NCBI GenBank assembly: GCA_041659805.1
Contig: JBAZXP010000001.1
Location: 640,589 to 704,588 of the forward strand
DNA from: Microgenomates group bacterium
Lineage (GTDB): Bacteria > Patescibacteriota > Microgenomatia > Daviesbacterales > UBA10151
Reading direction: 5' to 3'
Length of the DNA: 64,000 bases
In this document: one piece after another, positions 2,452 to 10,748 of the stretch
Position numbering within the stretch: the stretch's first letter is position 1
Layout of the letters: each line of letters begins with the position of its first letter
Made by a program: the position numbers and the translations under genes
The notes under the pieces: generated by a model
Seen by the model: only the letters and a program-made list of their open reading frames with translations
What the model was told of the DNA's origin: nothing
The model's database searches: none

Positions 2452-3635
2452 AGAATATATTACTTGTAAATATCGCTTATCCCCCACACCACTATGGTGG
2501 ATCAGGAATTAATATCAAGAATCTTACCGTTTTTTTACAAGATCTTGGTTACAATGTGTTCGTATTTACCGGAGGAAGAAGGGAAGAAATAGTTAATGAT
2601 AGCGGAGTTATAATTTATAGAAATAAAAGTCATGTTCAGGAAAACTCTCCGCTTTCCAATTCTAATTATTTAAGAAAAGTTTTAGAAAGAAAATTTATCA
2701 ATATAATTAAAAAAAATAATATTAATATAGTTCATTTTAATTCCATCCAGGGTTTAGGGGCAAATCTTATTAAGTTATCTTTGAAACTTGATATAAAGAC
2801 TTTTCTTACAATGCACGATTTTTGGTGGATTTGTCCTTCACTTTTCTTAAAGAGTTCTCATAGCCAAACAGTTCCTTTTCATAATCATGAGCAATTTTGT
2901 TACAAAGGTTCTTATGCAGAGAGGCTCCTAAAAAGAAAACAATATTTATATGAGATCTTAAAAGAAAATAAGCTTAAAATTATTTCTGTTTCAGAATCCG
3001 CAAAAAAGGCATTGATTTATCTTGGGTTACCAAATGCAAAAAATTATTTAGTTGTAGAGAATGGGATAATACCCTGTACTTTTGATAAAGTTAATTTAAC
3101 CGAAAAAAAAGAAGGAAAAGTGGTATTTTCTTTTTTGGGTGGTGTTGATATATCGGTGAAAGGGTTTCATTTAATATATGGAGCGTCAAGCTATCTTAAA
3201 CTAAATACAGATAAATATGAGATTAGGTGCTATCGTGTTTTAGATCATGCTTTAAAAACCATCTTTAATTATAATTCTCTCCGTAAACGTAATATAAAAC
3301 TATTTGGCACGTTTGATAACTCGAAAATTTATCAAATCTTATCAGAAACGGACTGTCTTATTGTTCCGAGTCAAGCCTATGAAACTTTTTCGATGAGTGC
3401 AAGGGAGGCTTTATTTGCAGAAAAAATATTAATTTCTTCCGGAATGGGTGCACTTTCAGAAATTCCTTCACCGAAACATATTATCTTTAATAAAAACTCG
3501 TCCCAAGATTTAGCAGAAAAGATGTTTGATGTAATTAATAATATAGATAGTCTTAGGACAAGAGATAGTGGTTTGCAAATTAAGACTCTTAGTGACCAGG
3601 CAAAGAATCTTCATATTTTATATCAGGGAAATTAA
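2445..3635 (+). CDS. Glycosyltransferase (GT4-like, group 1)
   Basis: A 396-aa product whose N-terminus (LLVNIAYPPHHYGGSGINIKNL) is typical of GT-B/GT4 enzymes. It sits in the glycan cluster. Confidence 0.55.
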   Translation: MLKNILLVNIAYPPHHYGGSGINIKNLTVFLQDLGYNVFVFTGGRREEIVNDSGVIIYRNKSHVQENSPLSNSNYLRKVLERKFINIIKKNNINIVHFNSIQGLGANLIKLSLKLDIKTFLTMHDFWWICPSLFLKSSHSQTVPFHNHEQFCYKGSYAERLLKRKQYLYEILKENKLKIISVSESAKKALIYLGLPNAKNYLVVENGIIPCTFDKVNLTEKKEGKVVFSFLGGVDISVKGFHLIYGASSYLKLNTDKYEIRCYRVLDHALKTIFNYNSLRKRNIKLFGTFDNSKIYQILSETDCLIVPSQAYETFSMSAREALFAEKILISSGMGALSEIPSPKHIIFNKNSSQDLAEKMFDVINNIDSLRTRDSGLQIKTLSDQAKNLHILYQGN

Positions 3636-3636
3636 A

Positions 3637-4674
3637 ATGATAAGTATTGTTATTGTAAATTTTAATGGCGGAATAAAGGTTGTGAAATCGGTAAGAAGTG
3701 TGTTGGCTCAAGCGCACCGTGATTATGAGTTGATTGTTGTAGATAATGGATCGACCGATAATTCGAAAGATGAAATTATTCAAAAATTTTCCGGAAAAAT
3801 TAAATTAATTGAATTGAAAAAAAATTTTGGTTTCACAAAAGGATGTAATTTGGGGATATCTGAAAGTAAAGGAGAGTATATTATGTTCCTGAATAATGAT
3901 GCTTATTTGTCAGGCAAAAACTTTCTTGTTATTGCAGAAAATATTTTAAAAAAATCCAAAAATAATATTTGTGGGATTTTCCCGAAAGTTTTTTTTAATT
4001 GGGAAAAAAACGTATTAAACAGTACTTATGCAATATGGCATAAAGATATACTGTGGTTTGACGAACATATAGGTTCGGTAGATCCTGAATTATTAAGTTT
4101 GGATGATCAACAGAAGGAAGTGTTTGGGGCAATGTTTATTGCACCAATATTTAAAAAAAGTATTCTTGAAAGCAGCGGTGGATTTGACGAGATGTTATTT
4201 ACTTACGGTGAAGATTTTGATTTATCTTACCGCATGAATATTTACGGATATAAATTTTTGTATACGCCTTTAATTAAGGTTTATCATGATTATAGATCTT
4301 CGTCGTTAGACGAGATTCAACCGCTTTGGTCGTATTTTTATTTTTTACGGAATTATTTAATTGTTATTCTTAAAAATTATGAACTGAAAAATATTATCGG
4401 TAAATTTTCAAGTTATACCTATCATTTCAGGGTTGCTTTAAAACATTCGATTAAATTTAAAGAGTGGCGGAAAATGTTGTTAATGCTCAAAATTCTTATT
4501 AGTCTTTTGTTTTTGGCCCCATTAATTATTAAAAAAAGATTAGAGATACAGCGTAAACGAAAATTTAATGATGTAAAAATTTGGTCGAATGAGTTTGTAA
4601 TTAACTATAATCCCAATTTTTATAATTCACATATTGTTTTAAATTCCGGAAATGTTACTAAAATAAGAAAATAA
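3637..4674 (+). CDS. Glycosyltransferase family 2
   Basis: ATG at 3637. The start MISIVIVNFNGG...VLAQAHRDYELIVVDNGSTDNS is the GT2 N-terminal signature. DxD-like motifs are present (FLNNDAY, GEDFDLSYR). Confidence 0.75.
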   Translation: MISIVIVNFNGGIKVVKSVRSVLAQAHRDYELIVVDNGSTDNSKDEIIQKFSGKIKLIELKKNFGFTKGCNLGISESKGEYIMFLNNDAYLSGKNFLVIAENILKKSKNNICGIFPKVFFNWEKNVLNSTYAIWHKDILWFDEHIGSVDPELLSLDDQQKEVFGAMFIAPIFKKSILESSGGFDEMLFTYGEDFDLSYRMNIYGYKFLYTPLIKVYHDYRSSSLDEIQPLWSYFYFLRNYLIVILKNYELKNIIGKFSSYTYHFRVALKHSIKFKEWRKMLLMLKILISLLFLAPLIIKKRLEIQRKRKFNDVKIWSNEFVINYNPNFYNSHIVLNSGNVTKIRK

Positions 4675-7078: not shown

Positions 7079-7815
7079 CTTGTGTATTTTACTTTGCGTG
7101 TTAGTTGGGTGATGTTCCCTGCTTTGTCAGTTGCAATAATAGTTATGGTATTGTCTCCTTCATTTATTTCTATAATCTGAGAGAAGGCACCATCGCCGTC
7201 AACTATAGCTCTGCTGCCGTTAATTGTAATAGTAATATCTTTGTCTGAATTAGTCTTGCCACTGACTGTTATTTTTTTATCTCCGCCTTTAATTTCTGTA
7301 TTATCTGTAGGTGACTGTATGTCTAATTTGGGTTTTTCGTTTGAATAAATAATATAGATTGGTTTTGAAGAAAGACTTTTATTTCCATTATTATCAATTG
7401 TTACCCCTGAAATACTATTAGAACCGAGACTTAGGTCTATTGGGTTACTGATAAAACTTCCGTCTTCTGAAGTGCTGACAGAAGATTTTAGTTCTCCATC
7501 AAGGTAGATCTCTATTGTTGTGTTCGTCAGGCTGTAACCATGAACTAAAATTGTGGCTGTTGAAGTAGCCTCATATGGGATATTTAAAACAGGAGGAGCA
7601 ACGGATGCGTTTTCTTTTATTGACTCAGGTGCTTTTACAGGTGTTTTAAAACGGTTTAATAAAGAAAGACTGCCGATAAATGTCGGAATAAACCAGACAG
7701 CTAAAATATAAAGAAGAACTGCGCAAATAACAATTGTAAGATAAAAGTTCTTTTTGCTTTTTCTTTCTAATCTTCTTGATAAAAATGATTTATTTGTTGT
7801 GCGTCTATGTTTCAT
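7075..7815 (-). CDS. Membrane-anchored protein with Ig-like/beta-sandwich repeats
   Basis: N-terminal basic stretch plus one TM helix (LTIVICAVLLYILAVWFIPTFIG), then S/T/N/G-rich beta-strand-like repeats (ITVSGKTNSDKDITITINGS, TITIIATDKAGN). Confidence 0.4.
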   Translation of the reverse strand: MKHRRTTNKSFLSRRLERKSKKNFYLTIVICAVLLYILAVWFIPTFIGSLSLLNRFKTPVKAPESIKENASVAPPVLNIPYEATSTATILVHGYSLTNTTIEIYLDGELKSSVSTSEDGSFISNPIDLSLGSNSISGVTIDNNGNKSLSSKPIYIIYSNEKPKLDIQSPTDNTEIKGGDKKITVSGKTNSDKDITITINGSRAIVDGDGAFSQIIEINEGDNTITIIATDKAGNITQLTRKVKYTS

Positions 7816-7840
7816 GTTTTCAGATTCCCATTATTCTCGG

Positions 7841-7912
7841 AGCCAACGGTGAGAATTGAACTCACGACCTATCCCTTACGAAGGGAGTGCTCTACCGCTG
7901 AGCTACGTTGGC
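7841..7912 (-). tRNA. tRNA-Thr (anticodon CGT)
   Basis: The reverse complement reads GCCAACGTAGCTCAGCGGTAGAGCACTCCCTTCGTAAGGGATAGGTCGTGAGTTCAATTCTCACCGTTGGCT. It folds into a cloverleaf with a 7-bp acceptor stem, GCTC/GAGC D-stem, anticodon loop TTCGTAA and TTCAATT T-loop. The anticodon stem has one C-U mismatch. CCA is not encoded. Confidence 0.8.
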
Positions 7913-8097
7913 AGGATTGCCAAACTGCTAATGTATATTTTACAGAAAAAAGCCATATTTTACGAGTGAGTAAAAAAAGAATAAGAGCGGGAGATGCAAG
8001 TTATTCCGAACTATTAGAACGATTCATGTTCGCATGGGATTGGATGGACAGGCTTTATTACGCATACCAAAGTACTTCTCAGGAACCTATAACAGAC

Positions 8098-8106
8098 TGA
8101 TATAAT
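8098..8106 (+). promoter_or_regulatory. Extended -10 promoter element (TGATATAAT) ending 7 nt before the ATG at 8113. The downstream transcript is probably leaderless.
   Basis: TGATATAAT occupies 8098-8106 and the start codon is at 8113. There is no room for a Shine-Dalgarno sequence. Confidence 0.35.
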
Positions 8107-8112
8107 ACTATT

Positions 8113-8745
8113 ATGGCAAAAGTTGATTATAGTGAAGATTATTTTGATCAAGTTAAACAACAGTTTAAAGAATTTACAGAGTTTCGTGCAAAAGTTAGTC
8201 AACAGAGTGAGGATCACCAAATACGAAAAAGGGCAGATTTATTAAATACTTACAATCATATAGTTACTTTTATAGGTATAGTGGCTGGATTCGGATTTAC
8301 AGCCATAGATAAAGTTGAAAACATATACCTATTTCTTATGGGCGAAGCGTTTTTTGTTAGTCTATTTATTTTTAACATTTTTTACTTAAAACAGTTTCAT
8401 ATTACTGAAAGCGAGGCTTTTCAAGATATTAGTGAGAAACTGAATAAAATATTTGATGCAAAAAGTAAGGTATACATAGATTTCTTTATGAAGAAACAAA
8501 GTCGAGCTTTCTTTGAAAAAGCACTCGATGAAGCAGTAGCTAATACTGAGACTCCGAAACCAAAACCTACTAAATTAGATTTAAACTTTCTTTTTAATGT
8601 TTCATTGGTACTCATAGTTATTGGCGGACTTTTCTTGCTTTCATCTTTTGTTAATTGGAATTCTCCGTTTAAGAGCGAAAAATTAAAAAATGGCTCTTGG
8701 CAAGATTATCATCGTTTTTCTGAAAAGCCTAATTTCCGACCATAG
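8113..8745 (+). CDS. Hypothetical 3-TM membrane protein, the first gene of the tRNA-flanked island
   Basis: A 210-aa product. It has a charged N-terminus, then predicted helices IVTFIGIVAGFGFTAI, IYLFLMGEAFFVSLFIFNIFYL and LFNVSLVLIVIGGLFLLSSFV. No known motif. Confidence 0.5.
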   Translation: MAKVDYSEDYFDQVKQQFKEFTEFRAKVSQQSEDHQIRKRADLLNTYNHIVTFIGIVAGFGFTAIDKVENIYLFLMGEAFFVSLFIFNIFYLKQFHITESEAFQDISEKLNKIFDAKSKVYIDFFMKKQSRAFFEKALDEAVANTETPKPKPTKLDLNFLFNVSLVLIVIGGLFLLSSFVNWNSPFKSEKLKNGSWQDYHRFSEKPNFRP

Positions 8746-8750
8746 ATACA

Positions 8751-10543
8751 TGACTACTTTGCAAAAATACCTAGTTCTTTCTTTTGGCTACAGAGATTTA
8801 GTGGGAATAACGGGGGCGGGAGGGATCAAAAGAATTGAATCTGAAATTAAAGCTTACAATTTATATGCAGTATTGGAATCATGTTCGAAAATATCACTCA
8901 CTCTTTTAAATAGAGGCGTAGCAAATCCTCTAGGCCAGGCAGAACTACTAAGTGGAATTTTTTCAAACAAAACACAGCGATTGAGATTTTATGAAATAGC
9001 TAGAGCAAAAGCGGCTGGGTCAGCATGGGCAATTTTTAACCAACAAAGCGTACTTGCTCTTGTAAAGATTGCTCTTGCCAATTGTCCGATCGAAGGAGGA
9101 AAAAGTATTGATACAAGCAACATTGAACAACTTGGTTATTGGCTCCTTATTCTGAATGATGAATGCTTCGCAGAAGAAACCGGCGGACAAATAGCTTTAC
9201 CGAGAGGCCATGAAAGAGAAAGACTTAGGCAAGCTCTTGCCCGGTATCAATTTTTCCATATATCTGAAAGGCTGGGCTATAAAATTGGACGGTTTAGATG
9301 GCTGGTCGACTACTTCAAGACACACAAACCCCATGGAATTGACATAGCAAAACTATTTAATGAAGCTACTGGAGGCGTCCCCTTAGATGATTATATGACT
9401 GTATGTTCCTCTCTACTTGTTAAATGGGTCAATATCTCAAATAAAGAAAAGGTGAACCTAACAAATGATTGGATAACCTGTCCTGATGTGTATTTCAAAG
9501 ACACAAAGTTAGAAAAAATATTAATTAAAAGAGTATTAGAAATGATATCTATGTTACCCCAAGAGTTTGAAAATACATATAAAACCTCTGTTGAAGAAAT
9601 ATTGGGTGGTCATGAACAATTTCATTATAATTTTATGCCTTTAGTCTGGAAACCATTAATTTGGTATCAGGATAAGAAGTGTTTTATATGTCCGTCGGTG
9701 GAATATTTATTCGATAAAGTAACCGATGGTATATACAGAACAATTGAGACCTTTTTACGTAATGAAAAAAGAGGGAAAGATAGAGATACATTCTCAATAG
9801 CATGGGGAGATGCATTTGAACAATATATAAACTCTTCTATGTCAAGTGCATTTGGGAATGATTTTTACCCAAGTTCTATGGATAAGAAATCAAAGGAAGA
9901 AATGGCAGATGGCATTATCGACTCAGCAAGTTTTGTGTTTATAGTAGAGACCAAAAATCTTCATTGGTCATATAAAGCAATGGTAACAGGAGATCTTGAA
10001 AGTTCGGGATCCTCACTCAAGCAATTATTTACAGATAAAGGTCTGGCTCAAATAGCAAAGTGCATAAGGAAAACTAAGAATGGTGAATGGAAGCTACCTG
10101 TAGATATCAAGGATAAACAATTTATTCCCGTTCTTGTGGTATCTGAAGGAATGCCTGGGGATGCATACAATCGTAAACTTTATGAAACAATCGCTGAGAA
10201 AGCTAAGTCAATAATTAATGATAAGGATATCTTACCCTTTATTATTTTAACTGCAGAGGAAATAGAGATACTTGAAGCAATTTCTTCAGAAAAAGGTAGC
10301 GAAGAGACAATACAAATTCTTGCTGAATATGCACACCTGTACGTTACTAAAAATGACTTGGGATACGTTCCTGATGCAATTAGTTTCAAAAATTATCTTT
10401 ATCATAAGGGTTACGAAAAACCACAGCTTTCATCTAATAATAAAAGACTATTAAAATATTTCGATGATGTTATGGATGATGTATGTGTTCAGGCATTCGG
10501 AAGAAAAATAGAAAAGAGACGGAAAAAGAGCAAGGAAGCTTAG
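8751..10543 (+). CDS. Large hypothetical protein (about 597 aa) with a candidate PD-(D/E)xK nuclease-like signature in its C-terminal half
   Basis: ATG at 8751 lies 5 nt after the upstream stop. The ORF track offers an alternative start at 8690 that would overlap the upstream gene. The motif GIIDSASFVFIVETKN at 9911-9957 has the form h-h-D-x8-hhhh-E-x-K. An upstream acidic helix (GDAFEQY) is present. There is no Walker A, and the N-terminal 300 aa are unrecognised. Confidence 0.5.
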
Positions 10544-10674
10544 ATTATAGGATCTTGACAGAGATTTTACACCGAACTCTCTTGAGTTTAAATTGAATTC
10601 AATTGTTGAGGTGGGAGATGCAAAATGGGATATTTTATGAGAGATGTAAGCCTAAAATTTAAATTTAAGCAATT

Positions 10675-10748
10675 TGGAGCGGGATACCAGAATCGAACTG
10701 GCTTCTCTACCTTGGGAAGGTAGCATACTACCGGTATACGAATCCCGC
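10675..10748 (-). tRNA. tRNA-Gly (anticodon CCC), CCA encoded
   Basis: The reverse complement reads GCGGGATTCGTATACCGGTAGTATGCTACCTTCCCAAGGTAGAGAAGCCAGTTCGATTCTGGTATCCCGCTCCA. The anticodon stem is CTACC/GGTAG with loop TTCCCAA. The T-arm is GCCAG-TTCGATT-CTGGT. The D-stem is weak and has G-U pairs. Confidence 0.7.

Follow-up and report, generated by a model that had tools for sequence, protein, structure and literature searches.

What does the small island between two tRNA genes in this Microgenomates genome encode, and do its two genes form a defence system together? The island is part of a 64,000-nucleotide stretch of contig JBAZXP010000001.1 (NCBI GenBank assembly GCA_041659805.1, positions 640,589 to 704,588), here called the window, and it contains a gene for a small protein with three transmembrane (TM) segments followed by a gene for a protein of 597 amino acids (aa). 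An earlier note on this DNA saw in the two a candidate novel defence module, composed of a membrane protein and a nuclease-like protein. The analysis presented here leads to another answer: the 597-aa protein is probably a stand-alone, remote GAPS1-like sensor-nuclease for anti-phage defence, carried as cargo of a tRNA hotspot in the genome of an uncultivated member of the Microgenomates/Woesebacteria. The main features of the locus, including the two open reading frames (ORFs), are:

7839-7912, minus strand: tRNA-Thr(CGT), the left border of the slot (ARAGORN; Rfam tRNA, 68.5 bits), which also borders the slot in the related loci L001, L023, and L024
7987-8112, plus strand: conserved region upstream of the TM gene, ending in an extended -10 element (alignment A4)
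8113-8745, plus strand: ORF A, the gene for the three-TM protein, 210 aa (ORF call and hydropathy)
8750-10543, plus strand: ORF B, the nuclease gene, 597 aa; PD-(D/E)xK protein of the GapS1 superfamily, stand-alone, candidate anti-phage sensor-effector
9221-10435, plus strand: part of the nuclease gene homologous to GapS1 (residues 158-562 against residues 105-480 of E. coli GapS1; hhalign)
9818-9955, plus strand: catalytic motif block of the nuclease (E357 at 9818-9820, D387 at 9908-9910, E400 at 9947-9949, K402 at 9953-9955)
10675-10748, minus strand: tRNA-Gly(CCC), the right border of the slot (ARAGORN; Rfam, 52.8 bits), which adjoins the LysM gene in L001, L019, L021, L023, and L024
10789-11481, minus strand: LysM gene, the neighbour beyond tRNA-Gly(CCC)

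ARAGORN and Rfam confirm that the two genes are bracketed by tRNA-Thr(CGT) and tRNA-Gly(CCC), and both genes are transcribed in the opposite direction of the tRNAs and the LysM gene, as the earlier note had it. Read from its first ATG, ORF B would span 8690-10543. The start is placed at 8750, which gives 597 aa, since all 22 homologues align from that methionine and the 100% identical public gene call P0001 has the same length. With this start ORF B follows 4 nt after the stop codon of ORF A; the tight adjacency had been described correctly, the distance of 5 nt had not. The 4-nt spacing makes it plausible that the TM gene and the nuclease gene are co-transcribed in the source genome.

Judged from its active site and its modelled fold, the 597-aa protein is an intact PD-(D/E)xK nuclease. 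The 22 homologues (38-100% identity) all carry E357, D387, G388, E400, and K402, and D387, E400, and K402 are at least 90% conserved across 60 more distant relatives (18-40% identity). A sequence comparison paired the family profile with the catalytic motif of Can2, an ancillary CRISPR nuclease (GxxFExYV...D...ExK, E = 4.2e-5). An AlphaFold2 model of the nuclease, made from the 22-sequence alignment, has a predicted local distance difference test score (pLDDT) of 88.4 and a predicted template modelling score of 0.88. In this model the core consists of strands 372-377, 384-391, 395-402, and 457-464 with flanking helices 342-371 and 472-484. The model, the conservation of the motif, and the fold matches together give the alpha/beta core with E...D...(D/E)xK by which the PD-(D/E)xK superfamily is recognised, and the domain also has the characteristics of the FokI-type cleavage domain of Type IIS enzymes. 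A Foldseek search with the model retrieved Upx (E = 1.5e-4, probability 1.0) and Nt.BspD6I (E ~3e-3 over ~600 columns). The nuclease core that the earlier note had seen in the large protein is thus borne out by the conserved E357, D387, and E400-x-K402 and by the nuclease fold of the model.

Other searches were less informative. Scans of both proteins against Pfam, PADLOC, and PHROGs gave only noise, profile A1 had no match among PDB sequences, and a search for viral folds in BFVD returned only generic restriction-endonuclease folds with E > 0.05. The 22 close homologues all keep three cysteine residues, C244, C311, and C314 (9479-9481, 9680-9682, and 9689-9691), including a CFxCP motif. The wider family is not invariant at these residues, which may constitute a subfamily-specific metal site.

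GAPS1 is a single-protein system that is triggered by the T7 capsid protein Gp10 and leads to growth arrest or dormancy, and mutation of D313 or K328 abolishes its defence activity (Mahata et al.). Trigger and outcome have been established for the proteins from Vibrio and E. coli alone. The NCBIfam profile NF047931 (antiphage_GapS1) matches the 597-aa protein with 48.5 bits and E = 5.9e-13 over profile positions 125-398 of 455. Forty of 60 diverse family members also match this profile (best E = 1.5e-20 among the 60), and they match no other nuclease family. The earlier note held that nothing in the island matches a named system; for the large protein this was wrong.

The E. coli protein used for comparison was reached through a fragment of the synthetic construct of the validated GAPS1 homologue EJP5250929.1 in the supplementary tables of Mahata et al. 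The native gene was found in E. coli Ecol_AZ147, with 100% identity over 380 nt of the construct, and is annotated as 'gapS1: GapS1 family protein'; a fragment of WP_152927281.1 had no match in complete E. coli genomes. The E. coli GapS1 is 508 aa long and, as a positive control, scores 401.6 bits on NF047931. When the 60-sequence profile A2 was aligned to it using hhalign, the probability was 97.9% and E = 4.9e-13 over 359 columns, covering residues 158-562 of the nuclease and 105-480 of GapS1. The homology thus extends past the catalytic core. The helix with GDAFEQY, D387, and E400-x-K402 of the nuclease fall on GRVFENA, D, and D-x-K of GapS1, and D387 and K402 thereby align with the residues equivalent to D313 and K328. 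The distance between the aspartate and the lysine is 15 in both proteins, which equals that of D313 and K328 in GAPS1. Pairwise BLAST between the nuclease and E. coli GapS1 is marginal (E = 0.011), and the relationship is therefore placed at the superfamily level: on sequence evidence the nuclease is a remote homologue of GAPS1/GapS1, below the family threshold.

The two proteins share the same single-protein plan, in which a helical N-terminal part precedes a PD-(D/E)xK domain at the C-terminus, and are homologous over ~400 residues with the catalytic aspartate and lysine aligned at the same spacing. Both also occur at mobile or variable sites in the genome: the gapS1 gene of E. coli is located directly downstream of a P2-like prophage integrase in a cI/integrase region (L025 4973-7527, NZ_CP018995.1). 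They differ in size: GAPS1 proteins have 508-532 aa, against 455 positions in the NCBIfam profile, and the protein studied here has 597 aa. Its N-terminal ~157 and last ~35 residues lack a counterpart. E. coli GapS1 further has DxK where the 597-aa protein has ExK. The host is here one of the Patescibacteria, none of which is among the homologues in the portion of Dataset S4 of the GAPS1 paper that was available. Given the sub-threshold score, the extra regions at both ends, and the other host phylum on one side, and the shared active site, the single-gene organisation, and homology over two-thirds of the length on the other, the nuclease family can be described as a divergent sister family or variant of GAPS1.

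Upx is a single-protein defence nuclease that senses phage terminase (PMC13099982, PMC13601566). The nuclease model is structurally similar to the solved Upx (PDB 9wuf), and the two have in common a FokI-like core with D...ExK as well as the logic of sensor and nuclease in a single protein. However, Upx is ~1,270 aa, is divided into NTD, MD, and CTD, and has dual PD-(D/E)xK domains, while the present protein is half that size with one nuclease domain. Profiles A1 and A2 did not retrieve 9wuf from the PDB sequences at E <= 1 or 10, nor was there any PADLOC hit. When it comes to the Type IIS restriction endonuclease FokI and the Type IIS-like nickase Nt.BspD6I, the identity is ~10%, the global template modelling score (TM-score) is low (0.2), and no cognate methyltransferase is found beside the nuclease gene. 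The likeness to Can2/Card1, ancillary nucleases of type III CRISPR systems (PDB 7bdv, 8q3y), is confined to ~65 residues of the catalytic core, and neither a CARF domain nor a CRISPR context is found here. The connection to defence made in the earlier note therefore holds in that the nearest identifiable relatives of the nuclease, GAPS1 and Upx, are anti-phage proteins; its novelty and its two-gene composition do not, as the named system has already been described and consists of a single protein.

A profile search run exhaustively over 1.84 billion cluster representatives gave 1,423 matches at E <= 1e-3, of which 574 at E <= 1e-10. The representatives are mostly 560-620 aa, matching the full length of the nuclease, and the named family members are annotated as 'hypothetical protein' from metagenome-assembled genomes of Patescibacteria. 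The distribution of the close family is patchy, with three loci among 185,579 species-representative genomes. No relatives turned up in IMG/VR when it was scanned with profiles A1 and A3, neither the nuclease nor the TM protein had a tblastn match in phage and plasmid records, and a homologue search using the diverse alignment A2 added two new matches (P0177 and the weak P0178), neither of which is a named protein. Three contigs carrying close homologues (L016, L018, and P0016) have titles naming 'Pseudomonadales', 'Chlamydiae', and 'Nitrosocosmicus'. Their gene content and nearest relatives are those of Patescibacteria, and the titles are probably binning or labelling errors.

The genomic context was read for ten distinct nuclease loci, all encoding close homologues; nine were informative, while L018 was too short. 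In the window and in L001 the gene lies in the tRNA-Gly/tRNA-Thr slot. L002 is an island starting at a tmRNA and contains a serine recombinase, a helix-turn-helix (HTH) gene, and a BrnT/CopG toxin-antitoxin pair. The nuclease of L004 comes after tRNA-Asn and a gene for an 848-aa protein. L008, whose nuclease is 84% identical to that of the window, is prophage-like with a capsid fragment, an Xre-type HTH gene, T5orf172, and FtsK_gamma. L009 is the end of a type IV secretion system cluster with a PLD-like gene, and in L010 the nuclease is found downstream of dnaG-rpoD. L027 contains a serine recombinase and an HTH gene, as does L028, which has an S24/LexA-like repressor in addition. Of the nine informative contexts, eight thus lie next to a tRNA or tmRNA or contain genes of a recombinase, a prophage, or conjugation. 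According to the earlier note, a consistent placement of homologues in DNA-repair operons would have spoken against its proposal; these mobile or variable surroundings are of another kind. No neighbour common to the family was found across the ten contexts, and by these contexts the nuclease is encoded by a single gene without a conserved partner, as GAPS1 is.

Two neighbours should be mentioned in their own right. A 235-aa protein is encoded convergently near the 3' end of the nuclease gene in both L001 (10272-10979, minus strand) and L008 (5361-6068, minus strand), with 53% identity between the two. The gene for the 235-aa protein overlaps the end of the nuclease gene in L008, lies beyond a 155-aa gene in L001, and is absent from the window. 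The protein has no family match, and its TPDVEA...LLESKS motif resembles that of a second PD-(D/E)xK nuclease. In L004 (5232-7958) the 848-aa protein is encoded 42 nt upstream of the nuclease gene (P0010 lineage). It has a weak CHAT/caspase-like match (E = 0.018) and may be a lineage-specific partner.

The slot itself was found in relatives of the window by anchoring on the LysM gene, and it occurs in four states:

L023, 10597-10833: empty, 91 nt between the tRNAs, flanked by the LysM gene and a gene for an Ig-like/Glucodextran_B protein
Window, 7839-10748: 2.76 kb, with the TM gene and the nuclease gene
L001, 7639-12773: ~5 kb, with the nuclease gene inverted relative to the window and four other genes
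L024, 11092-17518: 6.3 kb of cargo, among it genes for an AbiEii toxin (PF08843, E = 2.5e-19), a DUF5680 protein, and a trypsin-like peptidase, as well as a Mur-ligase-like gene

In L023 the order and the orientation of the two tRNAs relative to each other differ. The interval between tRNA-Gly(CCC) and tRNA-Thr(CGT) is a genuine hypervariable hotspot in related Patescibacteria. The tRNA-bracketed variable island of the earlier note is accordingly supported by comparative genomics, because the content of the slot varies between relatives and includes an empty site, and not by composition.

If the nuclease works like its relatives, the N-terminal two-thirds of the protein, helical and with winged helices, would keep the C-terminal FokI-like PD-(D/E)xK domain inactive, by analogy to GAPS1 and Upx. 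Recognition of an infection cue, which is probably a structural or packaging protein of the phage, would release the domain, and the activated nuclease would then cut nucleic acid and thereby halt phage replication or the growth of the host. Homology and genomic context are what suggest a role in defence, and they likewise point to the trigger and the target.

Some observations weigh against the proposal that the protein is a GAPS1-like defence nuclease carried as hotspot cargo. Its 48.5 bits fall well short of the curated NF047931 cut-off of 320 bits, the identity to GapS1 is ~16%, and residues 1 to ~157 correspond to nothing in GapS1. The nuclease is matched by none of the PADLOC models, and its variability along the length shows no region that is markedly hypervariable, as is seen in some sensors. 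The 4-nt spacing hints at an operon, so a lineage-specific link between the TM protein and the nuclease is possible. The composition of the island, furthermore, is native to the window. The earlier note gave a local GC content of roughly 40% against 33% for the flanks, but the measured values are 0.342 for the island and 0.347 for the window, which places the island at the 30th percentile of windows of the same size. ORF B has a GC content of 0.356 and ORF A 0.308, and the left flank alone is lower, 0.296. The GC content at third codon positions is 0.273 and 0.219 for the two genes, compared to a mean of 0.265 ± 0.026, and the tetranucleotide distance of the island is at the 60th percentile. 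Direct repeats resembling att sites were sought at the borders of the island and none were found, so that neither the atypical composition nor the flanking repeats by which genomic islands are often recognised is present. The native composition and the lack of att repeats imply that the nuclease gene is not a recent arrival.

When it comes to the TM protein, hydropathy shows the three predicted membrane segments at residues ~50-68, 68-92, and 155-184. Only six homologues were found (62-100% identity; 62-83% over residues 1-184). The earlier note recognised no family for this protein, and the family libraries scanned, including Pfam, PADLOC, NCBIfam, and PHROGs, gave no match. Its AlphaFold2 model is all-helical and of low confidence (pLDDT 67). 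The sequence TATAAT (8101-8106; TGaTATAAT in the window) is found 6 nt before the ATG and is invariant in all the TM-gene loci (L006, L011, L012-L015, and L026), which suggests that the TM gene has a promoter of its own. As this predicted promoter is only 6 nt away from the start codon, the mRNA is probably leaderless. Scans of the locus for promoter and terminator consensus sequences gave hits at chance level. A stretch of ~125 nt that precedes the TM gene (from 7987) is common to the window and L012-L015. The same stretch can be read as a 44-aa ORF (GTG at 7966, stop at 8098-8100) with 55% aa identity, and may be a small gene, regulatory sequence, or the remnant of a gene. A listed 97-aa ORF at 7807-8100 (plus strand) crosses the tRNA-Thr gene on the opposite strand and is an artefact save for its conserved 3' part.

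The gene downstream of the TM gene is different in every context. In the window it is the nuclease gene, 4 nt away. L011 has a gene for a 313-aa protein (3439-4380), L012-L015 one for a 312-aa protein (1836-2774 in L012) that is 26% identical to that of L011, L026 one for an unrelated 315-aa protein (1631-2578), and L006 has none. The 312-, 313-, and 315-aa proteins belong to no recognisable family. By eye the 312- and 313-aa proteins look PIN-like (LDTG...D..D...VVD), a resemblance that searches against Pfam, PADLOC, NCBIfam, and PDB sequences did not support. The two genes stand side by side in one of ten nuclease contexts and in one of five TM-gene contexts. Since the gene downstream of the TM gene changes each time and the nuclease family is mostly found without the TM gene, the latter is, as far as gene neighbourhoods tell, an independently mobile neighbour and not a conserved partner of the nuclease. 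One might regard the well-conserved TM gene with its invariant promoter as the fixed first gene of a portable cassette, followed by enzymes that can be exchanged for one another. This is rather improbable, but if true it would represent an undescribed modular, membrane-anchored family of defence or conflict systems specific to Patescibacteria, with the TM protein as the common sensor or effector.

The two-gene module proposed in the earlier note does not agree with these contexts. As an obligate defence or abortive-infection system, it would pair the nuclease with a TM protein that serves at the membrane as sensor or effector. The genes are co-oriented and 4 nt apart with no terminator-like site between them, and since a gene lies directly downstream of the TM gene or overlaps it in four of five contexts, a TM head combined with an interchangeable enzyme is conceivable. 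However, nine of the ten nuclease contexts lack the TM gene, including the 84%-identical L008 and L001 with the same slot, four of the five TM-gene contexts lack the nuclease, GAPS1 acts as a single protein, and the TM protein is unmatched in PADLOC, Pfam, and NCBIfam. An obligate pair is for these reasons doubtful at best. Another alternative is a DNA-sensing restriction-type enzyme, either Type IIS-like or modification-dependent and Type IV-like, in which the winged helices would read the DNA and the FokI-like domain would cut it. The long Foldseek alignments to Nt.BspD6I and the matches to FokI and winged helices are what one would expect of such an enzyme. On the other hand, the global TM-scores to BspD6I are low, the winged-helix matches are not placed within the model, and no DNA methyltransferase is encoded beside the gene in the ten contexts, the closest being a generic small methyltransferase using S-adenosylmethionine, 1.5 kb off in L027. 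Sequence homology, moreover, favours GapS1, which is activated by a capsid protein. A restriction-type enzyme is thus unlikely, although it deserves to be kept in mind.

It is also conceivable that the nuclease serves the mobile element that carries it, be it in homing or mobility, as an addiction module, or in combat with competing elements. Serine recombinases, conjugation genes, and prophage regulators do often adjoin it. The copies in the window and L001, however, have no recombinase or other element gene, orientation and neighbours vary relative to the element genes, and the closest characterised relatives are defence proteins, all of which make such a role quite improbable. A housekeeping nuclease for DNA repair or recombination in Patescibacteria would fit the native composition, as well as the UvrD and Pol X-like gene found within 8 kb in L001 and LigD_N and RecO_N found nearby in L027. 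Yet the distribution is extremely patchy, the slot is empty in L023, the gene has opposite orientations in the window and in L001, and repair genes do not accompany it in any conserved synteny; a housekeeping function is hardly credible. A stand-alone GAPS1-like sensor-nuclease remains the explanation that we consider probable.

Patescibacteria, also known as CPR bacteria (candidate phyla radiation), have tiny genomes. To our knowledge few defence systems have been recognised in them, and we know of little concerning their phage biology. The 1,423 representatives at E <= 1e-3 would constitute a sizeable unannotated sister family of GAPS1, located in tRNA-linked hotspots and recombinase-bearing islands of Patescibacteria, and the tRNA-Gly(CCC)/tRNA-Thr(CGT) interval would be worth searching for other defence genes of CPR bacteria. 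If the proposed function is correct, a recently discovered mechanism of single-protein immunity reaches far past Proteobacteria. The family would then also offer divergent sequences for dissecting how GAPS1-type sensors recognise phage proteins, and would provide an annotation handle for a large set of 'hypothetical proteins'.

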